From positions 32,001-96,000 of the IMG/VR virus record IMGVR_UViG_3300045051_000172: DNA of 64,000 bases; one strand, written 5' to 3'. Below the pieces are notes generated by a model. That model did not search any database and was not told the origin of the DNA. It worked only from the letters and a program-made list of their open reading frames with translations. The stretch is from a virus. A program made the position numbers and the translations under genes. How positions within the stretch are numbered: position 1 is the stretch's first letter; each line of letters begins with the position of its first letter. Positions 15,881 to 59,402 of this stretch are shown piece by piece.

Positions 15881-16198
15881 ATGCAAGCCCTGTATAAAAT
15901 TGAAGGAAATGAATTCAAATCAGCCTTGGCTCAAGAAGGTTTAACTTTATCTGAAGGTTATGAAATCAAGGATTTAGAAGAAGCCGATTTTGAGGCTGCT
16001 CTTAACCAGCATGTTCGTCCTATGCGAAACGATTTGCTAAAAGCTTCTGATTCTAGGTGGATCGAGAAAAGTTCGAAGGCAGAAGATTTGACAGCGATTA
16101 ACTCTTACAAACAAGCTCTTAGGGATTTACCCGATAGTCTTGATTTAGATTCTATCGACTATCTATCTGAAATTGAATGGCCGGTTGAGGGAGAATAA
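15881..16198 (+). CDS. Tail fibre assembly chaperone (paralogue of 14469..14843)
   Basis: 'RNDLLKASD...YKQALRDLPDSLDLDSIDYLSEIEWP'. Confidence 0.75.
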   Translation: MQALYKIEGNEFKSALAQEGLTLSEGYEIKDLEEADFEAALNQHVRPMRNDLLKASDSRWIEKSSKAEDLTAINSYKQALRDLPDSLDLDSIDYLSEIEWPVEGE

Positions 16199-16200
16199 TT

Positions 16201-16677
16201 ATGGCAGCACCAACAAGAACAAGATACAGACATCACTACGCTGAAGGAGCCCTTTCCAGTCTTAAGTTAGAAAACGGAAACGGGCATGGAAGCACGAATA
16301 CGGTTATTCGAAGGTTCTCGACTATTGCAGTCAATAATCCTGGAACCTCTGTTACCTTAACTCAAAGTGCGACTCTAGGGGATAGTGTCACTATAAATGA
16401 ATCTGGACTTTATAATATCCAATATGGAGATAGATCTTCGTCTGGTATTCAGACCTTTGGTATTTCAATAAATTCAAGTCAATTAACGACAAATATTGCT
16501 TCAATTACTTCTGGTAATCGAGCAGCTATAGCTCAAAGCATTAGCGGTAACGGTTCGACTCAAATTGGTTTAGATTTAAGACTTTCGGCTGGGGACGTTG
16601 TTAGATGCCATACTGATGGGGCCTTAGACGGAACTGAAGTTCGAACCTATTTCCATATACGAAAAGTAGGGGAATAA
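16201..16677 (+). CDS. Small fibre-tip/C1q-like beta protein
   Basis: 'DSVTINESGLYNIQY...LRLSAGDVVRCHT' resembles a C1q-like jelly-roll strand pattern, in the fibre cluster. Confidence 0.45.
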   Translation: MAAPTRTRYRHHYAEGALSSLKLENGNGHGSTNTVIRRFSTIAVNNPGTSVTLTQSATLGDSVTINESGLYNIQYGDRSSSGIQTFGISINSSQLTTNIASITSGNRAAIAQSISGNGSTQIGLDLRLSAGDVVRCHTDGALDGTEVRTYFHIRKVGE

Positions 16678-17192
16678 TGTATCCTTTTGACCAGATTCTT
16701 GCTTCCCAGCGCTGGAGCTGGTTCAAAGATCTCTGGGCTCAGAAGCAATACCAACAGGCGATCCTTACTCTTTTCAACGGATGGCCAGACATTACTTATC
16801 CTTGGCGTGAACGCGCAGCGGATGGAACTCTTCTTCCTCGTGGGGAACCTTCTTACAATCGCCTTCTTGAAATTGCTGTTGAAAAATGGGGCAATTACAA
16901 TGACCTTCGTAACTGGAAAAATGTTCTTTGGAGGGAATTTGGACACCTTCAGCAAGGCTGTCTTTGGTTTCCTCTTCACTACCTAGGGTATTGGAGTATC
17001 AATAAACTTTTCCCAGAATATGGGATTTACGGCTTTTTGGCCGCTTGGTCCGCGTTAATTTACTCAGACGCAAAGAAAGAATTCGTCGAAGATGTGGCCG
17101 GAGACGGACGTATGAACGCAAAGAATTATATTGATTTTGTGGTTCGATTGATCCCCGGTATCGCCTTTCTTCTCTATCTTTGGCTTTCCTAA
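16677..17192 (+). CDS. Membrane protein next to the endolysin (holin candidate)
   Basis: It has two to three hydrophobic segments in the C-terminal half and lies immediately upstream of the lysozyme. Confidence 0.35.
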   Translation: MYPFDQILASQRWSWFKDLWAQKQYQQAILTLFNGWPDITYPWRERAADGTLLPRGEPSYNRLLEIAVEKWGNYNDLRNWKNVLWREFGHLQQGCLWFPLHYLGYWSINKLFPEYGIYGFLAAWSALIYSDAKKEFVEDVAGDGRMNAKNYIDFVVRLIPGIAFLLYLWLS

Positions 17193-17207
17193 TTTACAGG
17201 AGACCTT

Positions 17208-17807
17208 ATGTTTCGTATAATTGAATTGATCTTAGGTATGCTTAAAGGCGCTCCGAGAGGGAATGATGCACCGGAGAGTCATGAGAAACCTCATACGATT
17301 CCAGCTCGCGAGGCCCATGAAATGTTTAAAGCTGGGGAGAAAGCTTCAGAACTTCCTCCAGGAAAGAAGGACCACATGAAGATTAATTCAAAAGGCCTGG
17401 ATATTCTAAAACAATTTGAAGGTCTAAGACTTAAAGCCTATCAAGACTCAGTTGGGGTCTGGACTATTGGGTACGGGGAGACCAGAGGCGTAAAACCTGG
17501 AATGGTAATTACGGAAGCCGAGGCAGAAGAGATGCTTAAGAACTCCTTAGAAGAATTTGAAGCTGGAGTCGCAGCCTTGACTTCTCAGGTCCATGTAACG
17601 GATAATCAATTTTCGTCTTTAGTTGTATTTGCATACAATGTTGGGCTCGGAAATCTCAAGTCCTCAACTCTACTCAGGAAATTAAACCTTGGGGATTTCA
17701 AAGGAGCGGCGGACGAATTTTTGCGTTGGGATAAAGCTGGGGGGCAGAAGTTAGCCGGGCTTACTCGACGACGAGAGGCTGAAAGAGCCCTGTTCCTTTC
17801 CGCCTAA
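17208..17807 (+). CDS. GH24 phage lysozyme (endolysin)
   Basis: The catalytic E-x8-D-x5-T pattern is present in 'FEGLRLKAYQDSVGVWTIGYGET'; also 'NQFSSLVVFAYNVG' and 'LAGLTRRREAERALF'. Confidence 0.92.
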   Translation: MFRIIELILGMLKGAPRGNDAPESHEKPHTIPAREAHEMFKAGEKASELPPGKKDHMKINSKGLDILKQFEGLRLKAYQDSVGVWTIGYGETRGVKPGMVITEAEAEEMLKNSLEEFEAGVAALTSQVHVTDNQFSSLVVFAYNVGLGNLKSSTLLRKLNLGDFKGAADEFLRWDKAGGQKLAGLTRRREAERALFLSA

Positions 17808-17809
17808 GC

Positions 17810-17818
17810 TGTTATACT
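17810..17818 (+). promoter_or_regulatory. Extended -10 promoter (TG-t-TATACT) for the tRNA
   Basis: TATACT at 17813-17818 lies 5 nt upstream of the first tRNA base. Confidence 0.5.
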
Positions 17819-17823
17819 GATTT

Positions 17824-17895
17824 GGCAGGGAGATCAAGGATCAACTGAGCCTCATAAGCTCGGACAGCCGAGGGCGGTATTCGGCCCTGCAACCA
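17824..17895 (+). tRNA. Atypical tRNA-Met (anticodon CAT) with encoded CCA
   Basis: Acceptor GGCAGGG/CCCTGCA (G1.A72 mismatch), discriminator A then CCA. Anticodon stem TGAGC/GCTCG with loop CTCATAA. T-stem CCGAG/TTCGG. The D- and T-loops are non-canonical. Confidence 0.7.
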
Positions 17896-17979
17896 ATTAT
17901 TCCGATAACCCGATTATTAAGATCATCTGAATAGCTCGTTTATCTTAATAACCTACCCGCAATTTGAACCCGCAGTTTT

Positions 17980-19887: not shown

Positions 19888-20618
19888 TTCTTTTCCTCCG
19901 GCTTCGGCAATAGATTGTTTTCGGCTAAGAGAACTTCTAGGGTTCGTCGGAATCTCTCATACAAAGACTGTCTCAGACGGTTTTGGGCTGAGATGCCAAA
20001 ACTCTCTGTGAACTTCTTTTCAATTTCTTTGACCGCCGCAAGGGCTTCTTCTTTGGAGGTCCAAGCATATTTCTTGTCGGCCTCAACTTCGAGGAACCTT
20101 CCGGTCTCTTTAAAATCCGTGTCGTAGGTAATATAGTAAACCCCGGTCGTATGGTTTTTGAACTTGTAAATCCAGCACATCTTGTAAATCTCGAAATTGA
20201 ATAGGTATCCGCGCTCGCGAGCTTCTTCGAGAACCTTGGACAAGTCAACCTTTAACTGGATCGCCGCATTCGAGGGTTGTTTTAAAACAGACCCCTTATC
20301 GATCCCCGTCATCTTTAAAAACTTGTTGTAGGTATTGATGTCAGAGTCCACTTCCAGATCGATCTCCTCGCGCACGTTGTTGTTGTGCTCGATGGTCTTC
20401 CTCTTAGAGGTCAACTCTCGGAATCCCGTTCCGGGCCCGCCTCGATCTCGAATGAACATCTCAAGGTTATCTTTGTGGGTGTAATAATAATCCCATGACC
20501 CGATTTCGATAAACTCGGCAGGCTCTAGGGATTCGAAGAATTTCTTAGCTTTTGAAAGGGAGATCTCATTGGCGAGATATTTAAACTCCAGTTCAGTAAA
20601 TTCAAAGAGTTCAGGCAT
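19884..20618 (-). CDS. CYTH-domain (triphosphate tunnel metalloenzyme) protein (start moved to MPELFEFTELEFKY)
   Basis: N-terminal ExExK motif 'ELEFK' and C-terminal 'FLEVE'; GGAG RBS before ATG 20618. Confidence 0.75.
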   Translation of the reverse strand: MPELFEFTELEFKYLANEISLSKAKKFFESLEPAEFIEIGSWDYYYTHKDNLEMFIRDRGGPGTGFRELTSKRKTIEHNNNVREEIDLEVDSDINTYNKFLKMTGIDKGSVLKQPSNAAIQLKVDLSKVLEEARERGYLFNFEIYKMCWIYKFKNHTTGVYYITYDTDFKETGRFLEVEADKKYAWTSKEEALAAVKEIEKKFTESFGISAQNRLRQSLYERFRRTLEVLLAENNLLPKPEEKK

Positions 20619-22143
20619 ATATGATCTCCGCTGCGAATTGGTTTCTGTAAATGTCCAATCTTTCCTCCAAATGCCTTTCTTGGAATTTAGTTCCTTCGAA
20701 TAGAAAATCATGTACCCAACCAATGTCTTTACCTTCGGCCAAGCGTGCAACTCGTCCTACGGCTTGGGTAATCTTAATCTCAGACTTGCCGCCGGTCGCG
20801 AGCAATAAATGGTTGGTTGAATAAACATCAATGCCTTCTCCAATGACCGTAGATCCGATCATGTTGCGGAGTTCCTTTTTATTGAACGCTCGAATCGTTT
20901 CTTTGACGTGAGCCTTCTTGTCGTCCCCGGAAACGAACGTAGACTCAATCTTGTTGAGCTTGAGGTATTCTTGAATCAATTTGCCTGATCCGTCTTTTCG
21001 GTCTACTAGAGTAAGCATTTGATTCTCTTCTGGAACATCTTTAATAATGTTCAAAATTTTGTTCAATAATGGGACGCTACCACAATAATTCTTCTCGTAC
21101 TCTTTTTGGTAGTTCATCATTGCCTTACCCGGGAGCCGGTGAACGATGACTTTGATTGGAGTGATGAATCCATCTTCTACGGCTTTCCAGGCTGGATAGT
21201 GATACAGGCGATTACTGAGAACGCCCCAGAGGTCTAAAGTCTTCGAGTCGTTTCTTAAGAAAGTTCCCGTGAACCCATATCGATAATAAATGTGCTCCAG
21301 CATTGGAAGAAGATCTGTGTAAGATTTCGATGCCGCATGGTGAAATTCATCCATGATAAGCATGTTTACGTCGCCAATCAATTCGTGAAGAAGTCCGGAA
21401 TCTTGAAGGCTGGCTAGGGTCGCAACGGTGACGAAACGAATTGGCTTCAGTTTGGTCTTGCCCTTTTTGATATCGGCTGCTGAGATTACTTGAACGAAAG
21501 TTTTCCCAAAGGCTTCTGTAAAGTCATCGGCGGTCTGTTGCAAAAGGAAGACTGCTGGAATCACGATCAAGGTAGTGACTCTCTTATCGAAAGTGACCTC
21601 TTTCATCATGTAAGTTTTTCCCGATGCAACGCAGGACTCTACGACGCCTCGTTCTTCAACTCTCAAAATTTCCGCAACTTCAGACTGATAGTAACGTGGA
21701 GGCAAAGGCTCTACTTTCCATTTGAAACGATGTTCTTGCTTGGGTACGATCCGAAGATCTCTTATGGTGTATGCAGGAGCCTTGGCTTCTTTTAGGACGT
21801 TCTTAACGATGCCTATGAGCCCTGTAGGAAACCGATTGTCGTCCAAAAGCAAACAGGCCGTTTCTTCGGCCTCAAATCGACGCAGCATCGCCTGGAGCTG
21901 TCTAATGTGTCCCTCGATGTCTTGTCCCGTTTCCGCCATCTTTTTTGCCAGATATGGGGAGGGGTTGCCGGATCTCCGCGCCATGTGAGCAAACTTCAGA
22001 GCACGAAGAGTTTCAATCTTCTTCTGAGTTGCTTCTTCGTCTTTATACGTTAGAGCACTTCGGACATACGAAATGAAAGAGGCTTCGAAATCCTGCAAAG
22101 TGCAATACGAGTTCCTAAGAACTATTGTGGGGGATTTACCCAT
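20611..22143 (-). CDS. Superfamily 2 DNA helicase (UvsW/XPB-like)
   Basis: Motif I 'VASGKT', II 'MDEFHH', III 'GFTGT', V 'VIGEGID', VI 'QAVGRVAR'. Confidence 0.88.
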   Translation of the reverse strand: MGKSPTIVLRNSYCTLQDFEASFISYVRSALTYKDEEATQKKIETLRALKFAHMARRSGNPSPYLAKKMAETGQDIEGHIRQLQAMLRRFEAEETACLLLDDNRFPTGLIGIVKNVLKEAKAPAYTIRDLRIVPKQEHRFKWKVEPLPPRYYQSEVAEILRVEERGVVESCVASGKTYMMKEVTFDKRVTTLIVIPAVFLLQQTADDFTEAFGKTFVQVISAADIKKGKTKLKPIRFVTVATLASLQDSGLLHELIGDVNMLIMDEFHHAASKSYTDLLPMLEHIYYRYGFTGTFLRNDSKTLDLWGVLSNRLYHYPAWKAVEDGFITPIKVIVHRLPGKAMMNYQKEYEKNYCGSVPLLNKILNIIKDVPEENQMLTLVDRKDGSGKLIQEYLKLNKIESTFVSGDDKKAHVKETIRAFNKKELRNMIGSTVIGEGIDVYSTNHLLLATGGKSEIKITQAVGRVARLAEGKDIGWVHDFLFEGTKFQERHLEERLDIYRNQFAAEIIYA

Positions 22144-22176
22144 TCAATTAAAGGGTAAGATAGTTTACGGATTTAG

Positions 22177-22350
22177 TCAAGAAGGTTCCATACCAGTGAA
22201 CTTGTATTCCTCGTCCTCAGCATGTTCTATGGCCTTCATGAGTTCGAGCGCGTGCTGGACAGTCAGAGAATCTGCCATCTCTTGCGCGTTACGGCGAGCA
22301 TCCTTGGCCTTTATGAGCCCTTTAGAAAGCTCCGTACAAATGATACACAT
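22177..22350 (-). CDS. Small hypothetical protein (57 aa, MCIICTELSKG...), not in the ORF track
   Basis: Translated by hand; N-terminal CxxC; fills the operon gap. Confidence 0.5.
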   Translation of the reverse strand: MCIICTELSKGLIKAKDARRNAQEMADSLTVQHALELMKAIEHAEDEEYKFTGMEPS

Positions 22351-22354
22351 GAAA

Positions 22355-22555
22355 TTATCCTAAGAGTTTATAAGCAACTACGGCCAGGCCGAGCAGTAAG
22401 GCTCCAGCAGCAACAACTGCCGCCAATGCGGTTAATTGAGCCATTGCGACTCCGAGAGTAGCTTTATAGGCCACTTGAAAAGGCTTATCTGTTGCGCTCG
22501 CAATTGCTGCGATTACTTTTGAAGTTCCATCACTTTGTTGATTTGGATTTCTCAT
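22355..22555 (-). CDS. Small membrane protein
   Basis: C-terminal hydrophobic helix; GGGG RBS. Confidence 0.55.
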   Translation of the reverse strand: MRNPNQQSDGTSKVIAAIASATDKPFQVAYKATLGVAMAQLTALAAVVAAGALLLGLAVVAYKLLG

Positions 22556-22668
22556 TGACCAACCCCTAAAAGACCAAGCAAAAGTCCTCCGATTACCAGA
22601 GTTGCTTGAATTGCAACAGTTACGATGATAAGTCCAATTCCTAATTTAATTCCGTCTACGATTGTCAT
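22552..22668 (-). CDS. Small hydrophobic protein (38 aa, MTIVDGIKLGIG...)
   Basis: AAGGAG RBS, TAATG and ATGA overlaps with both neighbours, single TM helix. Confidence 0.5.
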   Translation of the reverse strand: MTIVDGIKLGIGLIIVTVAIQATLVIGGLLLGLLGVGQ

Positions 22669-23015
22669 TATTTTTTCTCCTTAAGTTCTGATTCATCCAA
22701 CCAAACAGTAGCCTGAATTCCATTACCACATGAGATTCGTACCTTATAAGCATTGGATTTAATAGATAAACTTTCTTCGGCATCTCGTTTGTAGTAGTTT
22801 CTGAAATCTTCTATTCCAAAATTTTCGTTGGCGACGCAACGACGATAGGGAGATTCTGCGCCAAAAGAAACCTCAACGGTTTCACCTAGAGAGAATTTGT
22901 AAGGAGGAAAGGGAGTATGTTTTGGGACACAAAGATAAAAGGGAACCGCTATGGCTGCAAAAACTGCGACGACCGCCAACCCGCAAAGAAGGTTGTGTTT
23001 AACCGTCTTTTTCAT
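22668..23015 (-). CDS. Hypothetical protein with N-terminal TM anchor
   Basis: 115 aa with a hydrophobic N-terminus; overlaps both neighbours. Confidence 0.6.
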   Translation of the reverse strand: MKKTVKHNLLCGLAVVAVFAAIAVPFYLCVPKHTPFPPYKFSLGETVEVSFGAESPYRRCVANENFGIEDFRNYYKRDAEESLSIKSNAYKVRISCGNGIQATVWLDESELKEKK

Positions 23016-23473
23016 TCATCATCCTCAGAGTCATCATTTAAAATATTATTTTTTGCGTATTCGATCAGATAGAGTCTGGGAGCAAAAACTGCTTTCAAAA
23101 GATTTCTAAATTGTCCGAGAATTTCGCCCAAAGCAAAGAAAGAAGCAACTATAGTGGCGACATGAACAAAATTCCAAAATCCATCCGGATATTTTAAGTA
23201 CCGTGGATCTTCTTCTGGATTAAGAGGAGTTATTTGATATTGGTGAATGAAATAAGAAATTGTTCCTAGGATCACTAGGTATACCAGGGCAACCCCCATT
23301 TGATAGAGGGAATCGTAGATTCCATCAAATTTTATGATTTCTTTACAAACTTGAGGAATCTCTTTTTTCGCAAAACTCTTGGCTTCTGACGCCGCACTTA
23401 AGATTCCCTCTGCTGAAGAATGCAAAAGTTTAGATAATTCTTTTTGAGCTGCTTTACTTACTTTCATTTTCAT
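23012..23473 (-). CDS. Hypothetical two-TM membrane protein
   Basis: Two hydrophobic helices; GGAGG RBS. Confidence 0.6.
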   Translation of the reverse strand: MKMKVSKAAQKELSKLLHSSAEGILSAASEAKSFAKKEIPQVCKEIIKFDGIYDSLYQMGVALVYLVILGTISYFIHQYQITPLNPEEDPRYLKYPDGFWNFVHVATIVASFFALGEILGQFRNLLKAVFAPRLYLIEYAKNNILNDDSEDDE

Positions 23474-23666
23474 CCCCTCCGACTTTGATTGAAAATCCCG
23501 TCACTTTTCTCCAGTTCCATCCGAGCACTCCCCCAACTAACATGCATAAAAGTGTTCTAGTTCCAGAGGGTTGCATCAAGTTGTTGATAACCATTCCCGT
23601 CAAAAGACATGCAATTGTCAACGATGCGAAGTGTGATAGTCCGTGAAGAAATCCATTTTGCTTCAT
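23454..23666 (-). CDS. Small two-TM membrane protein, probably leaderless
   Basis: The ATG is 6 nt downstream of the -10 TAACCT of a TTGACA-17-TAACCT promoter. Confidence 0.55.
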   Translation of the reverse strand: MKQNGFLHGLSHFASLTIACLLTGMVINNLMQPSGTRTLLCMLVGGVLGWNWRKVTGFSIKVGGDENESK

Positions 23667-23672
23667 GCATTC

Positions 23673-23713
23673 AGGTTAATGCACTTGATTCTTTTTGTCA
23701 ATCGGGGTATTCT
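23673..23713. promoter_or_regulatory. Overlapping divergent sigma70-type promoters
   Basis: - strand: TTGACA (23701-23696), 17 nt, TAACCT (23678-23673). + strand: TTGATT (23685-23690), 17 nt, TATTCT (23708-23713). Confidence 0.65.
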
Positions 23714-23719
23714 AAAAAA

Positions 23720-24181
23720 GTTCGGTGCCTTGGGACTAGGTGCGAATCCTAGCTTGCCTCATGAGGTGAAAACATTGTGAGGTACTGGTACAGGCGAATA
23801 GCTTGTGCTGAGGAACTAACCAAGAGGCACGTTAAATACTTTCTACCGCAGTTGACTACTGTGCGGTTAGAAGTACGCTCCAATGAGGTAACTCAAAGGA
23901 GTAGAATAGGCGAAGAGCTGATTGGTTCCATATCCTCAGTGTTAAGGGCTTTACTCTTAGGAACATATTTCCCTAAGATCCTAGACATCAGTTCCCAAAC
24001 TTATGAAGTAATTTCATGAGGTTAGGGAGCTTTTGTCTTTAAGGCTAGTAAACCTAAGCGGGACCAAGGGACACCACATGATAAATCGAAGGGTTGGAAG
24101 TTAGAGTTTACTGATGCGTCGGGCCATAGTGTCAAAATCCTAACGGGACACACTTTCAAGAATGTGGGCTAGTCTCCAAGC
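23720..24181 (+). ncRNA. Large (~460 nt) highly structured ncRNA of unassigned family
   Basis: It has a dedicated + strand promoter and no credible + strand ORF. More than 10 helices were found by hand, including a GTAA (GNRA) tetraloop, two GGC-GAANA-GC loops, a T-loop-like TGCGAAT and 5'/3' complementarity. G.U pairs work only on the + strand. Confidence 0.7.
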
Positions 24182-24298
24182 ATTCAGATTCTTCCGATTG
24201 ATCCTCTTTTTGATTTCTTTCTTCACCCGAGCCAGGGTGACTTCTTTTAAAGTAATCTTTAATTTCTTTGCGAAATAATATTTAGATTCAAGAGTCAT
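24140..24298 (-). CDS. Small basic hypothetical protein (52 aa, MTLESKYYFAKK...)
   Basis: Translated by hand; ATGA overlap with the upstream gene; its last ~40 nt are antisense to the ncRNA 3' end. Confidence 0.4.
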   Translation of the reverse strand: MTLESKYYFAKKLKITLKEVTLARVKKEIKKRINRKNLNAWRLAHILESVSR

Positions 24299-24558
24299 TT
24301 ATCACCCCAATCGGCCCAATAGGACATCCAGTTCTCCTTCACAAACGGCTTATGTCCTCCTGAGTGAATGATGCAATCGCATTTTCTTTCCTTGGCTTCC
24401 TCGTCCGTCGCGATATCCGTGATGTCGTAATTCGCGAACTCGGATTGACCTGTTTTCATTTGACCGTACATTTTCTTGTGTCGCTCTATTTGAGCCAAGC
24501 GTTTCTTCCTCGTCATGGGAGCAACATTAGGCAGAGCCTTAGCTGATAAAACTTTCAT
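24295..24558 (-). CDS. Hypothetical protein
   Basis: 87 aa; ATGA overlaps. Confidence 0.55.
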   Translation of the reverse strand: MKVLSAKALPNVAPMTRKKRLAQIERHKKMYGQMKTGQSEFANYDITDIATDEEAKERKCDCIIHSGGHKPFVKENWMSYWADWGDK

Positions 24559-24965
24559 TCAAATCGTAGTCCTAACTTTCTCAAAATAATGTGCGAATTC
24601 GTGAGAATCAAATTCATCACGTCTTCCTCTAAGTTAGGAGAAATCTTACGATTTTTCGAAATCACTTCTTTTGCCGTGTCCCGAATGGCCTCTAAAATCT
24701 CAACATCACTGAGAATCTTTTTGAGAGGTTCTGCCGGTTTAAGTTCGTAATCAGTCGCCTCGATATATTCGACGGACATAGATTCAATCTGACGATTATC
24801 CCCGTAGGCGATCCAGCGCATCCCATCTTTTTCTATTACTCGAAAGTAAGAGTCGTCACCGGGGCGCTTGAAAGGGACTCCAGTTTTGAGGGCTTCAAGA
24901 AAGGTAAGTCCAGGGCCCGGGCCCTCAGTTATTCCATATTGTGTAAGTTGTCGTCGCATGTGCAT
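24555..24965 (-). CDS. Hypothetical protein
   Basis: 136 aa; strong AAGGAGG RBS. Confidence 0.65.
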   Translation of the reverse strand: MHMRRQLTQYGITEGPGPGLTFLEALKTGVPFKRPGDDSYFRVIEKDGMRWIAYGDNRQIESMSVEYIEATDYELKPAEPLKKILSDVEILEAIRDTAKEVISKNRKISPNLEEDVMNLILTNSHIILRKLGLRFE

Positions 24966-25086
24966 CCTCCTTTATCAATCTTGACTCAACTGATCTAGGA
25001 AGTAAAGAGGGGGTGTCGGAGAGAACTATGCATCTTTTATAGGGGGAGGGGAAAGCTGCGAAAGAATTTCCTCTCCGACTGTTTTC

Positions 25087-25115
25087 AGAATATCAAAACT
25101 TTGACATAAATGCAA
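25087..25115 (-). promoter_or_regulatory. sigma70-type promoter TTGCAT-17-TATTCT with extended -10
   Basis: The predicted start site falls at the 5' arm of a 9-bp stem (25079-25071 / 25023-25015). Confidence 0.5.
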
Positions 25116-25357
25116 TGCGCAAAATAAGGAGAATTCTGCGCAAAATTTGACACAAAATGCGGAAGTTTATGTCATTTACTTCCGAGCAACGGGAAGTTCT
25201 TAAAGTTAACCTTTTGAATAGATTAGGAAATTTGAAAGCCATAGTTATATAATTTACTACACGCAAGATACCCGCCAAATACCCATAATCATTGGGGCTT
25301 TAAGGTATCTCACTCTCTAGCCTTGACCGGGCCTGGTCCCCGTGAGAAAATGAGGGT

Positions 25358-25666
25358 ATGGAACTCGTAATGGAAATCATAGGCTGGATCGGATCGATGG
25401 CCTTCGCAGTGTGCGCCGTTCCTCAGGCTTACGATTCTTGGAAGAAAGGTCACTCGCGAGGAATTACTTGGGGCTTCTATCTTCTTTGGGTCATCGGCGA
25501 AATCTTCACGCTTCTCTATATCATCCCGACTGGCAAAGTTCCCCTCCTCGTAAATTATCTCGTCAATTTGGTTTTCCTCACAATCATCGGATATTACAAA
25601 GCCTACCCACGAAAAAGAACCCGGAAGAGTCACTCTCGCAGATCTCATTTAACTGTGGTGAAATAG
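25358..25666 (+). CDS. PQ-loop (SemiSWEET-like) three-helix membrane protein
   Basis: 'AFAVCAVPQAYDSWKKGHSRGITWGF' has the PQ motif after TM1; three TM helices; GAGG RBS. Confidence 0.75.
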   Translation: MELVMEIIGWIGSMAFAVCAVPQAYDSWKKGHSRGITWGFYLLWVIGEIFTLLYIIPTGKVPLLVNYLVNLVFLTIIGYYKAYPRKRTRKSHSRRSHLTVVK

Positions 25667-25741
25667 GGCCCTACTGAAAGAGTTGCACTTTCGCCTTCGG
25701 AATCCCATAGTATCCGACGTGCCGCTTCACACCGAGTAGGG
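25665..25741 (-). ncRNA. tRNA-like cloverleaf with an 11-nt anticodon loop
   Basis: - strand: acceptor CCCTACT/AGTAGGG, D-stem GTGT/GCAC, anticodon stem TCGGA/TCCGA, 4-nt variable loop, T-stem GAAAG/CTTTC with loop TGCAACT, then C73-C-C-T. Confidence 0.65.
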
Positions 25742-25750
25742 ACTTCCATA

Positions 25751-25780
25751 TTGACATGAAGAGGTCTCAGACGTTATTCT
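25751..25780 (+). promoter_or_regulatory. sigma70-type promoter TTGACA-18-TATTCT
   Basis: It lies 10 nt upstream of ATG 25791. Confidence 0.55.
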
Positions 25781-25790
25781 AAAGGCATCC

Positions 25791-26492
25791 ATGCGCATCA
25801 TAAGTAACTTCAAAGATTTCTATGACGGTATCAGTCATCAGTATTTAGATAAAGAAATCCTATACTTGCGCAGCAGTGTCGAAGAATCGCCGGAGCGCGC
25901 GAAGGTTCCCGAAGTGAGCAAGTTCGAAATCATCGACTCTCCGAATAATGTGACTTATTTCTTCAGCTTAGAGCTTCTCGGATTCTGCGGAAAGATCTAC
26001 CCCATGGCCGTTGTGCGCACGACAGGGATCGAATATAAGCCCACAGAGTTCAATCAATACTCCCAAGGATTCTTCAGCTACGACAAGCTCGTCGATTTCG
26101 TGAACCTCAAAAAGATTCCCATCAAAGAGGGTCGCCGATATCGCTGGTTCAACTTTTCCTACCAAGATAGTTTGGCGGATATCGCTCGCTTTTTCGAAAC
26201 TACTACTGATTACAATAAGTTAGATAAGGTCTTTCAAAGACTCAATACGCCGGTATTCGTCCTGCGCGAGACGGGCCGCCGCGAGCGAAAGCTGATTACG
26301 AATCCCATGCTTAAGAACTTCTCGTTCCAAAAGTTTAAGGACCCGTTCACGACGCACCAAGAACTTTTCATGTATGTGGGAGGAATCCTCCGACAGCCGG
26401 ATCGGGAAATGGTCAAGCTTACAGATAAACAAAAACTTGAAAAGAGAGGCTTCGACAAATGGAGCTTCAGAAAACCCCCGGAGGGAAAATGA
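25791..26492 (+). CDS. Hypothetical protein (233 aa)
   Basis: Long ORF downstream of a promoter; no motif recognised. Confidence 0.7.
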   Translation: MRIISNFKDFYDGISHQYLDKEILYLRSSVEESPERAKVPEVSKFEIIDSPNNVTYFFSLELLGFCGKIYPMAVVRTTGIEYKPTEFNQYSQGFFSYDKLVDFVNLKKIPIKEGRRYRWFNFSYQDSLADIARFFETTTDYNKLDKVFQRLNTPVFVLRETGRRERKLITNPMLKNFSFQKFKDPFTTHQELFMYVGGILRQPDREMVKLTDKQKLEKRGFDKWSFRKPPEGK

Positions 26493-26680
26493 ATCGACTC
26501 ATAATGCACCTGATCGGATTAGCCTTAATTCCTTTGATTTTAGCGATCTCAGTTCTGGCTGCGGGACTTGCTTTAGTCCTCGGAGTTTTTGTTAGTTTGG
26601 CCTTGCTAGTTGTGCCCGGACAAGTTAAATTCAATGGAGAGAAACTCAGCAGCATTCTACGAAAGGTAAAACGAGCATGA
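26489..26680 (+). CDS. Small membrane protein (start moved to ATG 26489)
   Basis: GGAGG RBS, long hydrophobic segment, ATGA overlaps. Confidence 0.55.
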   Translation: MNRLIMHLIGLALIPLILAISVLAAGLALVLGVFVSLALLVVPGQVKFNGEKLSSILRKVKRA

Positions 26681-26967
26681 AAATCAGTCCTCAGCAATTT
26701 GTTCAAAATTTACGAAATGGTGGCCTAAATGCCCAGGCTTCTTTGACTTTAGCGGAAGCTTCTTTAAAGAGCGTTACCGGCGGAAAGCAAGGCTGGACCT
26801 ATGCTGATCTTCCGAACTACCTTCAACTTGCTCAGGATTCTCACTATTCAGACTCGATGCGAAAACAGCTTATTCAAATGGAACGTGATAAGCCAAAACA
26901 GCTTGCCAAACTTCAAGGTTTCTATTCTCAAGTTGTTGGCATTTTGAAGAAACAAGTCAAAGCATAA
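26677..26967 (+). CDS. Hypothetical protein
   Basis: 96 aa; ATGA overlap. Confidence 0.55.
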   Translation: MKISPQQFVQNLRNGGLNAQASLTLAEASLKSVTGGKQGWTYADLPNYLQLAQDSHYSDSMRKQLIQMERDKPKQLAKLQGFYSQVVGILKKQVKA

Positions 26968-26968
26968 T

Positions 26969-26997
26969 TTGACAATTTGCCCTGTTCCCGATACATT
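26969..26997 (+). promoter_or_regulatory. sigma70-type promoter TTGACA-17-TACATT for groEL
   Basis: It is followed by the AGGGAG RBS and ATG 27010. Confidence 0.65.
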
Positions 26998-27009
26998 TTA
27001 GGGAGACTT

Positions 27010-28677
27010 ATGACTTTAAATCCAAAGAAAATTGCTCAAAAAAACGAGATGGCCGACAAAATGAAAGTTGGCATTTCCCTCGTTGCTTCCATCGTTAAAC
27101 GTACTTTAGGGCCCGGAGGTCTTCCGATCCTAATCGAACGAAATGGACAGAACTTAGAAGGTGATCCTCTTGAGCCCATGATTACGAAAGACGGAGTCAC
27201 CGTCGCAAACGAATGTGCCTCAGACGACCCCGAAGTTGATCTCACTATTCAAACCGTCAAAGCAATTTGTAAGAAAACAAATCGAATCGCTGGAGATGGA
27301 ACTACGACCGCGATTGTTTTAGGTGAGGCTTTATATCTTGAAACTCTCAAAGAGCTGGATGCTGATTCAAATTTGAATCCTCAGATTGTTCGAGAAGAAT
27401 TAGAATTGGCAATCAAAGACGTAGTGGCTGAACTTGAAAAAGTTGCAGTACCTGTAAAAGATTTCGCACGCATTGAACAAGTTGCAAACATTTCTGCAAA
27501 CGGTGAAAAAGAAATCGGCTCAGTAATTCGGGCCGCTTTCGAACACGTTGGAGCTGAAGGCGTCGTCACTATCGATGAAGGTTCCTCAATTGAAACCACG
27601 ATTGATCGAGTTGAAGGTTTTCAATTTGCTCGCGGAGCCGAATCTCAAGATCGTTTTTTCAATAACAAAGAGAGAACTAAGTTCGAAGCCAAAGATGCTT
27701 TGGTAATTATCTATGACGGCAAGATCGACCACAATGGAAAACTGGTCGCGGTCATGAATACGATTTCAAAAGAATTCGCAACTGCCGGAGGCGGCATCGG
27801 AGCCTTCCCGCCAATTTTAATCATTGCGAATGATTTCAGTTTAGATACTCTTCAACTCCTTCTAATCAATAAAGCCGAATCAGGATTAAATTTCTGTGCG
27901 GTTCGAAGTCCCAACACGACTACGATTCGTTCCTTGATGCTTGACGATCTGGCGGTATATCTCGGCGGAACCAAGCTGGGCAATGGAGGCAAAGACCTTC
28001 AATCAGCCGAATTTAAGATTTCCAAGGACCAAAACGGAAAGATGGTTTTTACGGGCGACATCGGATTTGTCTCTTCAGTTATTGTGGATCGCTACAATAC
28101 AACCCTATTCGGAGGCGGAGGAACTGAACAAGCCGTCACTGAAAGAGTAGACCAATTGAATGCCTCCAAAGAAGCCGCCTTCAGTGAATACGACCGCTCG
28201 ATGATTAATGATCGAGTTGCTTCCCTCACAGGTGGAATCGCCAAGATTGGCGTAGGTGGACGGACAGAGTTAGAAATCAAAGAAAAATATCATCGCATTG
28301 AAGATGCCTTGAATGCTTCCCGAGCCGCCATTGAAGCCGGAGTTATCCCAGGAGGAGGCGCGGCCCTTTTCCGAATTGCCGATCAATTGAGTAAGTCCGA
28401 CACTGTTGGCCATAGAATTCTTTCGAAGGCTCTCAAGTCTCCCATATTCCAAATCTTGGATAATATCGGGATCGCTCATGAGAGTCTAAATTTAGATCAG
28501 CTTAAATCTGATCCTACTTTAATTTTCGATGCCCGCAACAAAAAGTTTGTTGATGCATTTGAGGCCGGAATTATCGATCCCTTAAAAGTAACCGTAACTG
28601 CACTTGAGAATGCCGCATCCATTGCCGGACTTCTTTCGACTTGCGGCGGCGGGATTACTTATCTGAGAAAGGTTTAA
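27010..28677 (+). CDS. groL: Phage-encoded group I chaperonin GroEL (start moved to ATG 27010)
   Basis: 'TLGP', 'ITKDGVTVA', 'AGDGTTTAIVL', 'KEKYHRIEDALNASRAAIEAGVIPGGG' and 'GIIDPLKV' are all present; there is no C-terminal GGM tail. Confidence 0.93.
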   Translation: MTLNPKKIAQKNEMADKMKVGISLVASIVKRTLGPGGLPILIERNGQNLEGDPLEPMITKDGVTVANECASDDPEVDLTIQTVKAICKKTNRIAGDGTTTAIVLGEALYLETLKELDADSNLNPQIVREELELAIKDVVAELEKVAVPVKDFARIEQVANISANGEKEIGSVIRAAFEHVGAEGVVTIDEGSSIETTIDRVEGFQFARGAESQDRFFNNKERTKFEAKDALVIIYDGKIDHNGKLVAVMNTISKEFATAGGGIGAFPPILIIANDFSLDTLQLLLINKAESGLNFCAVRSPNTTTIRSLMLDDLAVYLGGTKLGNGGKDLQSAEFKISKDQNGKMVFTGDIGFVSSVIVDRYNTTLFGGGGTEQAVTERVDQLNASKEAAFSEYDRSMINDRVASLTGGIAKIGVGGRTELEIKEKYHRIEDALNASRAAIEAGVIPGGGAALFRIADQLSKSDTVGHRILSKALKSPIFQILDNIGIAHESLNLDQLKSDPTLIFDARNKKFVDAFEAGIIDPLKVTVTALENAASIAGLLSTCGGGITYLRKV

Positions 28678-31520: not shown

Positions 31521-32093
31521 ATGCAAGTAGAATACAAATTAAAATTGGGTCAAGAAGAATTCACTCTTAAGACGGAAGTCCAAAACGAGATCGAATTTTT
31601 CCAAAAGATGGCTTTCTATTCAGGTCTTCCAAAGACTGGTCCGAATGGAGAGAATGACCTTAAGCTCGTTCACAGAACTACCAAGAAAGGCGATTACTAC
31701 TCAATCGTTTCAGTTTCGGCTGGACAAGAGTATCGTCTCGGAATTTTAAAAGAAGGCGGCCTCTTTCCTAAAGGTTGGGCTCCCATCTACGGCACAAGCG
31801 AAGACGCAGAAGAAACTGCTACGTCTACGGCTCAAGCCACAGTAGCCTCGGTTGAAACTCAAATTGCCGCCGCTACCGCAGCTCCAAAGGCTGCAGCCGC
31901 AACTGCGACTGCCGCTCCGAAAGCAGCAGCTCCCGCAGCCGCTGCACCTAAGGCCGCACCAGCCCAGCGTTCAACGGCAGACATCATTAATCAGTATGCC
32001 GTCGGAAACACCGCAACTAAACCCGCAGCAGCCTCGGCGGCCCCCGCAACCGCCCCAGCAACTGGAAATGTGAACTCACTACTTAGGAGATAA
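31521..32093 (+). CDS. Hypothetical replication-region protein with Ala/Pro/Lys-rich low-complexity tail (possible ssDNA-binding protein)
   Basis: Globular ~90-aa N-terminus plus AAPKAA repeats; upstream of the primase-helicase. Confidence 0.55.
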   Translation: MQVEYKLKLGQEEFTLKTEVQNEIEFFQKMAFYSGLPKTGPNGENDLKLVHRTTKKGDYYSIVSVSAGQEYRLGILKEGGLFPKGWAPIYGTSEDAEETATSTAQATVASVETQIAAATAAPKAAAATATAAPKAAAPAAAAPKAAPAQRSTADIINQYAVGNTATKPAAASAAPATAPATGNVNSLLRR

Positions 32094-57900: not shown

Positions 57901-59334
57901 ATGGATAGTCTTAATCAACTACCCCAAGATCTTACTGGCTTTGGTGCTGCTAATGCTCAAGAAATCGAACAACTTCAAAAAGCGTTGTCAATCGGTTCTG
58001 AATATGCTACGCAAACCCCTGGGACATTAACCCAAGGTGCTGCGCTTGCTGTTGAAGACCTTGACCGTACTTTGAAACTCGTTACCCACAGCATGGAACA
58101 CATCAAGCTTTGGAAAGATATTGGTAAAGAAAAAGTGAGCCAAACGGTTCATGAATTTAACGTGCAAAACAGCTATGGAAATGAAGTTCCCGTATTTTTT
58201 CAAATGGGCGGAACTCCATCTTCAACCGATGCTAAATATGCTCGCGATGTCGCGATTGTAAAGTATCTTGGAACCCAAGGACAAGTTCAACACAACTTGA
58301 CCCTTATCCAAGCCGCTCACGGTCCCGTTATCGCTCGCGAAGTCAAGAACAAGACGATTGAACTCTTGTCGCGTAATGAACGCGCCATGTTCAGCGCTGA
58401 TTCTTCGATCAACTCGCTTGAGTATGATGGTATCGAAGCTCAAATCGCTTCAAAAGAAGGTCAAGCTAAGTACAAATCGACTGCTTTCGCAGGATATGAT
58501 GGTCTCGGCGTTGACGATTCCGTATTTATCGACATGCGAAGCCGTGACGATATCTTGGATGAAGACTCTTGTGAAGAAGCCTGCTTGAGAGCAGTGAATA
58601 ACTTTGGTATGCCAATGGATATGTACTTGGCCACCGACGTTCACTCTGATTTCAGCCGCGCTTTCTACGCAAAGCAAGTTACTCGTCCTGGAGATCGATC
58701 TGCTGCTGGTTACTTGGTTCCTGAATTCGTTGGAACTTTGAATTTCCGATTCAAAGCTAACTTGTTCAACCGAGCCCGCAAATCGCCTCTCGCTTCTGCG
58801 GTTTCTGCTTCTGCAGCTCCCACTCTCGCTTCGCCACTCAGCCCTGCTGACGCGGCTTCCGAGTTTGCTTCTGACGACGCTGGTACCTATGGCTACAAGA
58901 TTTCTGCAGTATATTCGGATGGCGAAACCCTTCCGTCTTCTGAGTCTTCTTTGGCTGTTGCCGCTGGCGACAAAGTAACGCTTGCAATCACCTACTCAGG
59001 CTCGCCTGTTTACTTGAATGCATTCCGTTCTGCGAAAGATGCTGCTGGTTCTAATTGGCAATTCATTGGTCGAATCGCACCTGCTGGTTCGGGCAATGCT
59101 CATAACGTCGATTACAACAAAAAGCTTCCTGGACGCAGTTCAGCTTTCTTACTTATGCATGATCCGGATGCGCTTGTTTTCAAGCAACTCGGCTCTATGA
59201 TTAAGTATGACTTGGCTGTTACTGACACTTCGTACAAATGGTTACAACTGTTGTACGGAATGGTCGTTATCCAAGCTCCTCGTAAACACATTATTCTTGA
59301 GAATATTGCGTTGTCGAGAGATGTTTCGGCTTAA
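57901..59334 (+). CDS. Major capsid protein (HK97 fold, resembles Twort/SPO1-like MCPs)
   Basis: 477 aa after protease and scaffold. The N-terminal 'QKALSIG...GAALAVEDLDRTLKLVT...IKLWKDI' parallels my recollection of the phage K-type MCP. It has a strong RBS and a terminator. Confidence 0.88.
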   Translation: MDSLNQLPQDLTGFGAANAQEIEQLQKALSIGSEYATQTPGTLTQGAALAVEDLDRTLKLVTHSMEHIKLWKDIGKEKVSQTVHEFNVQNSYGNEVPVFFQMGGTPSSTDAKYARDVAIVKYLGTQGQVQHNLTLIQAAHGPVIAREVKNKTIELLSRNERAMFSADSSINSLEYDGIEAQIASKEGQAKYKSTAFAGYDGLGVDDSVFIDMRSRDDILDEDSCEEACLRAVNNFGMPMDMYLATDVHSDFSRAFYAKQVTRPGDRSAAGYLVPEFVGTLNFRFKANLFNRARKSPLASAVSASAAPTLASPLSPADAASEFASDDAGTYGYKISAVYSDGETLPSSESSLAVAAGDKVTLAITYSGSPVYLNAFRSAKDAAGSNWQFIGRIAPAGSGNAHNVDYNKKLPGRSSAFLLMHDPDALVFKQLGSMIKYDLAVTDTSYKWLQLLYGMVVIQAPRKHIILENIALSRDVSA

Positions 59335-59365
59335 TTCTAAACCTCAGTAAGTCCTGAGTAAGAGA

Positions 59366-59402
59366 GGCTCCTAGGTGAAAACTTAGGGGCCTTTTCTTTT
59401 TT
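59366..59402 (+). terminator. Intrinsic terminator after the MCP gene
   Basis: 10-bp stem GGCTCCTAGG/CTTAGGGGCC, loop TGAAAA, then TTTTCTTTTTT. Confidence 0.85.

Follow-up and report, generated by a model that had tools for sequence, protein, structure and literature searches.

The window analysed here is a stretch of 64,000 nucleotides, running from base 32001 to base 96000 of a viral record of 119,478 bp (IMG/VR IMGVR_UViG_3300045051_000172) that CheckV rates as complete. The phage encodes baseplate and tail proteins, a UvsW/SNF2-like helicase, a GroEL chaperonin, a primase-helicase, a DNA polymerase and an SbcC-like protein. It has no cultured close relative; its GroEL is at most 38% identical, and its helicase about 23% identical, to the proteins of deposited phages. 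A search of sequencing runs located the stretch considered below in two rhizosphere metagenome DNA runs and listed no RNA run with it; comparison of contigs showed that the second run contains short fragments only, all identical to the stretch and free of variants. A Shine-Dalgarno sequence lies upstream of about two-thirds of the longer genes of the phage, and the genome is ~94% coding by rough ORF cover, a figure that includes some spurious ORFs. An earlier note on this sequence had pointed out that large phage RNAs often lie near tRNAs; however, ARAGORN predicts zero tRNA genes in the window and in the whole 119-kb genome.

The locus of interest lies within 4.8 kb of small orphan ORFs (22143-26977) that separate the divergent helicase and GroEL genes (Table 1). 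The spacing between these two genes is just 0.35-1.5 kb in five related IMG/VR phages, and the stretch therefore sits in a lineage-specific insert at a divergent junction. Gene direction is that of the minus strand from 25648 down to ~17980, such that a plus-strand RNA would indeed lie against the flow of the flanking genes, as the earlier note had observed. Minus-strand ORFs of 57, 66, 115, 153, 87 and 136 aa possess gene-like codon log-odds of 0.17-0.46, compared with reference values of -0.09 +/- 0.14 for decoy ORFs and +0.26 for long real genes. Between the start of a 70-aa ORF (23666) and the stop of a 52-aa ORF (24140), 473 nt (23667-24139) hold no credible gene. The 52-aa and 87-aa genes share an ATGA, in which the start of the former overlaps the stop of the latter; the codon score of the 52-aa gene, 0.097, is borderline. 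The 70-aa ORF is likewise borderline in codon score (0.134) and has no Shine-Dalgarno sequence (-0.1 kcal/mol); in addition, it is not called in an independent assembly of this phage, where gene calling leaves a gap of ~670 nt. If the 70-aa ORF is not a gene, the non-coding gap extends over 23474-24139 (666 nt). The stretch had been described as ORF-poor. By codon usage it is non-coding; as an 80-aa GTG ORF is present within it, it is ORF-poor, not ORF-free.

Table 1. Features of the locus in window coordinates, with properties of the predicted plus-strand fold.
Feature	Coordinates	Strand	Remarks
Helicase gene	20611-22143	-	
70-aa ORF	23454-23666	-	Doubtful; product resembles a two-segment membrane protein by eye
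Opposite-strand promoter-like site	23673-23701	-	Perfect -35 TTGACA (23701 to 23696), 17-nt spacer, TAACCT (23678 to 23673)
TTGATT-17-TATTCT promoter-like site	23685-23713	+	8/12 consensus bases
Candidate structured RNA core	23720-24185	+	Multi-branched fold, ~151 pairs, 22 G.U; ends of core provisional
P1 closing helix, 5' strand	23724-23739	+	Pairs with 24169-24184; 14 pairs, two bulges; pair probability 0.83-0.92
Hairpin CUAGG-UGCGAAU-CCUAG	23736-23752	+	tRNA T-arm shape; competes with P1
P2 hairpin	23755-23784	+	10 pairs; pair probability 0.94; buries GAGG and GUG start of 80-aa ORF
80-aa GTG ORF	23777-24019	+	Inside candidate RNA; probably spurious
P3 hairpin	23788-23808	+	GAAUA pentaloop; pair probability 0.92; first copy of box AGGCGAAnAGCU
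P4 domain	23809-23938	+	Three-way branch; pair probabilities 0.65-0.99; local z -3.19
P4a	23837-23875	+	Arm of P4
P4b	23877-23902	+	GUAA tetraloop, AA/AA internal loop
Second AGGCGAAgAGCU box	23908-23919	+	Within P4
P6 domain	23970-24071	+	Long irregular stem, terminal hairpin 24000-24020 (loop GUAAU); pair probabilities up to 1.00
P7 domain	24074-24167	+	Long interrupted stem; pair probabilities 0.69-0.95; local z +0.4 to +1.3, unexceptional alone
52-aa basic protein gene	24140-24298	-	Last gene of upstream minus-strand array; Shine-Dalgarno duplex -6.0 kcal/mol
Terminator-like hairpin (24223-24240) then CUUCUUUU	24223-24250	+	Possible 3' end, giving an RNA of ~530 nt
GroEL gene	26977-28677	+	

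The plus strand of this non-coding stretch folds into a well-defined, multi-branched structure. Over 23715-24185 its MFE is -156.1 kcal/mol (z -4.10), which none of 100 dinucleotide shuffles equalled, and z is still -3.98 when the 3' end is extended to 24260. The complementary strand is ~33 kcal/mol weaker (-122.7 kcal/mol, z -1.87), with 5 of 100 shuffles folding as well. Its fold contains 7 G.U pairs, compared with 22 among the 151 pairs of the plus-strand fold, a difference that favours the plus strand, for which the earlier note had argued from the G.U pairs. The plus-strand fold contains 24 helices with pair probability above 0.6, many of them above 0.9. All 14 helices that had been listed in the earlier note are present at the positions given there, albeit single helices of 7-10 bp are expected by chance in 470 nt by our own estimate. 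The GC content of the candidate equals the genome average, and the adjoining segment 23667-23719 is AT-rich (34% GC).

To place these values in a genomic context, two controls were run with our own scripts. When 471-nt windows on both strands of the 119-kb genome were ranked by composition-corrected folding energy, the candidate ranked fifth of 1288. Local 120-nt windows of its plus strand reach z-scores of -3.25, -3.19 and -4.95, and two of its four non-overlapping windows lie at -3.25 and -4.95; of 790 windows of this size drawn at random from the genome, 2.0% attain a z of -3 and 0.4% a z of -4.9. P6 is the strongest sub-region (local z -4.95), and the 3' quarter (24060-24180) is locally unexceptional. 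A 500-nt ORF-free gap of a related phage (L002) served for comparison and is unstructured (z -0.7 and -0.9). The other top folding outliers of the genome occur in or beside coding sequence, either inside a 617-aa gene or at a terminator and its adjoining genes; RNA genes therefore cannot be told apart by an excess of folding energy alone. The 617-aa gene (genome positions 16112-17965, or approximately -15900 to -14000 in window coordinates) contains, on both of its strands, the 471-nt windows with the greatest excess folding in the genome (residual z of about -3.5). A strong intrinsic-terminator-like hairpin of 13 pairs followed by a U-tract occurs on the plus strand at 59360-59400, just after the 477-aa gene 57901-59334, and accounts for one of the folding-energy outliers.

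In the modelled fold, several arms (P2, P3, P4a/b and P6) are predicted to be independently stable, with loops of the GNRA type. The closing helix P1 is less settled: its 5' strand has alternative partners at 23820-23830 and 24064-24075, and the partner shifts when the assumed 3' end is extended. Three partners that contain CCAAG are available to the 5' segment GGUGCCUUGG, with duplexes of -15.5 to -21.4 kcal/mol, and mutually exclusive pairings of this kind had been taken to suggest pseudoknots or a conformational switch. However, the best partner of the same segment in shuffled sequence averages -18.8 +/- 2.4 kcal/mol, and a switch built on the three CCAAG partners was rejected because the pairings do not exceed chance level. 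Insofar as the partner duplexes match those of shuffles and the closing helix moves with the 3' end, the pseudoknot or switch idea is without statistical support. A 12-mer, AGGCGAAnAGCU, occurs at 23792-23803 and again at 23908-23919, the two copies being 116 nt apart. The first copy forms the hairpin with the GAAUA pentaloop; the second could make a short hairpin with a GAAGA loop that is unused in the predicted fold. Both loops have the sequence GNRNA, and such loops recall lambda boxB. An origin of the RNA by internal duplication was rejected, since its repeats span only 9-15 nt.

Signals for initiation and termination were considered on both strands. The earlier note had credited the RNA with a promoter of its own, and the two hexamers are present with the 17-nt spacing described; their value as evidence did not survive. 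There are 220 sites of equal match on the plus strand of the genome, and because 8/12 matches recur roughly every 540 nt on each strand, the site is no evidence alone. The extended -10 word shows no enrichment in the genome. The promoter-like site of the minus strand overlaps the plus-strand site back to back and is weak, its -10 matching at 3/6 positions only. A transcript from this site would begin at about the first letter of the ATG that opens the 70-aa ORF and may be leaderless; lacking a Shine-Dalgarno sequence, the ORF may be translated from such a message. Terminator-like sites number 8 in 5.2 kb compared with 5.2 +/- 2.4 expected, and the one beyond the core, the hairpin 24223-24240, is therefore no evidence alone either. 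No minus-strand terminator was found within the gap.

Known RNA families provided no assignment, in agreement with the earlier note. Rfam cmscan returned zero hits in the whole window at the gathering score, and over 23500-24400, on both strands and at E up to 10, it returned only a 13-nt chance match to a TMV pseudoknot. The candidate is therefore not GOLLD, ROOL, OLE, raiA, HEARO, RNase P, tmRNA, 6S, pRNA or a group I/II intron as these are currently modelled. No riboswitch, leader, intron or toxin-mRNA family of Rfam matched at E up to 10. Several specific identities were also rejected. For a tRNA or tmRNA, ARAGORN finds none in the window or genome, and the T-arm-like hairpin sits near the 5' end of the candidate. 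For a group I/II intron, no model matches either strand at E up to 10 and the genes on both sides lie on the strand that folds less well; nor do the flanking ORFs have homologues against which a spliced product could be compared. A retron msr-msd, a DGR template and a TnpB-IscB omega RNA were set aside on the lack of an RVT_1 domain (PF00078) and of a TnpB zinc-ribbon domain (PF07282) in the genome. Finally, a T5-type helicase leader RNA was rejected in view of a helicase whose best matches among 50,697 phage records are just 22-27% identical, none of these best matches being listed as T5, and of the location of the candidate RNA on the strand opposite to the helicase gene.

Relatives of the stretch were sought in several collections. 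Neither blastn against phages and plasmids nor nhmmer against the loci of related phages gave a match. Single-sequence covariance models were built for the two best domains, P4 (R1) and P6 (R2), and applied together with BLAST to records of five related phages, including one complete genome of 114 kb, again with no match; R1 matches only itself, and R2 matches nothing outside P6. The contexts of neighbour-gene homologues yielded no match by BLAST, R1 or R2. Pattern scans, in which stop-free frames of the RNA were treated as pseudo-proteins with six 8-codon patterns per scan, covered viral, metagenome and genome contigs and returned only a 28-nt chance match in an archaeal MAG (L039). A pattern for the P4b 20-mer gave no match, and neither did a DNA polymerase pattern with which further relatives of the phage were sought among viral contigs. 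Close relatives are lacking for the 153-aa, 87-aa and 80-aa products, and the genes for proteins distantly related to the 153-aa one (38-40% identity) sit in dense arrays, where no gap of this kind adjoins them. Given that neighbouring ORFs with good codon usage are equally orphan, the absence of homologues from every collection searched is weak evidence.

The reading that we favour, with a probability of about 0.5, is that 23720 to ~24185 (perhaps ~24250) constitutes a stand-alone plus-strand gene for a structured non-coding RNA of ~470-530 nt, convergent with an early-type minus-strand operon. Transcription would start in the AT-rich segment 23667-23719, with its overlapping back-to-back promoter-like sites, and would end at or before the hairpin 24223-24240. 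The transcript would fold into arms P2-P7 and may act as a folded molecule, e.g. by scaffolding a protein of the phage or host, or by serving as its decoy. The candidate, including domain P7, overlaps the 3' end of the 52-aa gene, such that the 3' 45-110 nt of the RNA would be antisense to this gene. By virtue of this overlap and its convergence on the leftward operon, the RNA may also be an antisense or interference element; convergent transcription with antisense pairing could, as a by-product, dampen the operon at its end. Gene orientation around the candidate counts against a stand-alone RNA, since the operon there runs on the minus strand and a plus-strand transcript needs the putative promoter.

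A structured RNA gene must be weighed against the possibility that the stretch is a spacer or decayed remnant without RNA function, in which only the promoter segment at the left end matters and folding is incidental. In favour of this, the stretch lies among 4.8 kb of rapidly evolving orphan genes, a variable insert that is missing from related phages, and nothing in it is conserved in any collection searched. Coding regions of the genome show similar excess folding, and promoter, terminator and alternative pairings are all at chance level. We nevertheless regard this explanation as unlikely, because the combined folding statistics are improbable (two independent 120-nt windows at the 2% and 0.4% levels, in addition to the overall z of -4.10) and the asymmetry of G.U pairs between strands is marked. 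Moreover, a dead spacer of 470-670 nt would be unusual in a genome with the coding density given above, even if that rough figure counts some spurious ORFs.

Function could reside instead in the minus strand, with the gap forming part of the leftward early transcript, as a structured leader or a structured segment between cistrons. Placed between the 52-aa gene and the 70-aa/153-aa genes, it might there control processing, stability or translation. That the minus strand is transcribed is very likely given that the flanking genes all lie on it, and transcription through the gap would meet no minus-strand terminator; some local structure is also evident, with z of -2.1 to -2.6 in three windows. 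The fold as a whole makes the proposal doubtful, however, being matched by 5 of 100 shuffles at an overall z of just -1.87 and lying 33 kcal/mol above that of the plus strand, of which the 22 G.U pairs become A.C on the minus strand. Nor does either strand match a riboswitch, leader or intron family.

Returning to a plus-strand RNA, a new class of structured RNA is a reasonable but unproven reading, and the sequence qualifies as a candidate new class only in the weak sense of fitting no family. GOLLD (Rfam RF01998) and ROOL (RF03087) are large ornate RNAs of bacteria and phages (PMC5737381), with structures determined by cryo-EM (bioRxiv 10.1101/2024.12.08.627333). The candidate resembles them in its length of several hundred nucleotides, its multi-branched fold with GNRA-type loops, its carriage by a phage, and the lack of an obvious partner protein or known function. 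It differs in having no covariance-model match, no tRNA genes and no family of relatives; the kinship to GOLLD or ROOL that had been suggested is not upheld, even at E up to 10. GOLLD and ROOL measure about 580 and 800 nt, and the candidate is shorter than either. We consider it improbable that the RNA is the first example of a hitherto undescribed class of large phage RNAs that fold by themselves, acting by catalysis or by RNA-only assembly like that of ROOL and GOLLD, with tertiary or intermolecular contacts made through the T-arm-like hairpin, the GNRA/GNRNA loops and the twin AGGCGAAnAGCU boxes.

The pRNA of phage phi29 is a further point of reference. It measures 120-174 nt, is encoded at the genome end, has its own promoter, and acts as an RNA that works with the packaging motor. 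Like the gene for this pRNA (Rfam RF00044), the candidate would be a phage gene for a folded RNA with its own promoter, which is only putative here. However, it does not match the pRNA model, and it lies among early-type small genes, not packaging genes. If real, the candidate adds one more large, well-folded phage RNA, from a soil (rhizosphere) lineage without cultured relatives, and would indicate that RNAs of this kind, no less than the small early genes surrounding it, can be 'orphans' confined to one lineage. In practice its value is limited, as the collections searched supply no relatives whose covariation could be analysed.

A coding function for the stretch was also evaluated. The 80-aa ORF could be translated from a highly folded plus-strand mRNA with its ribosome-binding site buried in P2, in the manner of type I toxin mRNAs of the hok kind. 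A GAGG motif 10 nt before the GUG provides a Shine-Dalgarno duplex of -6.9 kcal/mol, and the combination of a closing helix and a buried start recalls the fold-back inhibition of hok mRNA. The likeness extends to the length of ~400-500 nt, the pairing of 5' and 3' ends in a closing helix, and the presence of an ORF with both its ribosome-binding site and its start codon sequestered in a hairpin. However, the ORF is non-coding by codon usage (log-odds -0.149, below the decoy mean), it has no relatives, the candidate has no Rfam match to a toxin-mRNA family, and no partner antisense sRNA was identified. Gene-calling pipelines are split, as one calls the ORF and another omits it, leaving the region uncalled. 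The product has no homologue in 5.8 billion protein clusters and belongs to no family, its AlphaFold model is poor (mean pLDDT 59.5, pTM 0.26), and its translation, judged by eye, is not clearly hydrophobic and is unlike a short hydrophobic toxin; other frames of the stretch have no Pfam or PHROGs match. We therefore view a small protein as very unlikely.

Least probable of all is a DNA-level element, e.g. a replication origin or protein-binding region, for which the position 1.5 kb from the helicase gene and 1.6 kb from the divergent orientation switch at 25650-25790, and a cumulative GC skew close to its minimum in this part of the window, are outweighed by the lack of iterons or repeat families beyond chance pairs of 9-15 nt, the lack of an AT-rich unwinding block within the structured core, and a G.U asymmetry that points to selection on one RNA strand, not duplex DNA.

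Two motifs of the candidate were also sought in other contigs. No tRNA is predicted by ARAGORN around the hairpin 23736-23752, and no acceptor strand or CCA follows it by eye; tRNAs almost always carry U55 where the T-loop UGCGAAU has G. The same 17-mer was found in 30 viral contigs, none of which is like the candidate RNA beyond the motif, and in most of which it reads as the T-arm of a tRNA-like sequence (assessed by eye). In most of the IMG/VR contigs concerned (L009-L038), tRNA-like sequences with the T-loop UGCGAAU share an identical 17-nt T-arm within tRNA bodies that look unrelated by eye. A scan with the twin-box pattern gave only a false hit to a coding peptide repeat in an unrelated viral contig (L042:1350-1550), in which a gene-like tract of repeated GAAGGCGAAAAGCT units apparently encodes a repeated xEGxKL peptide motif.
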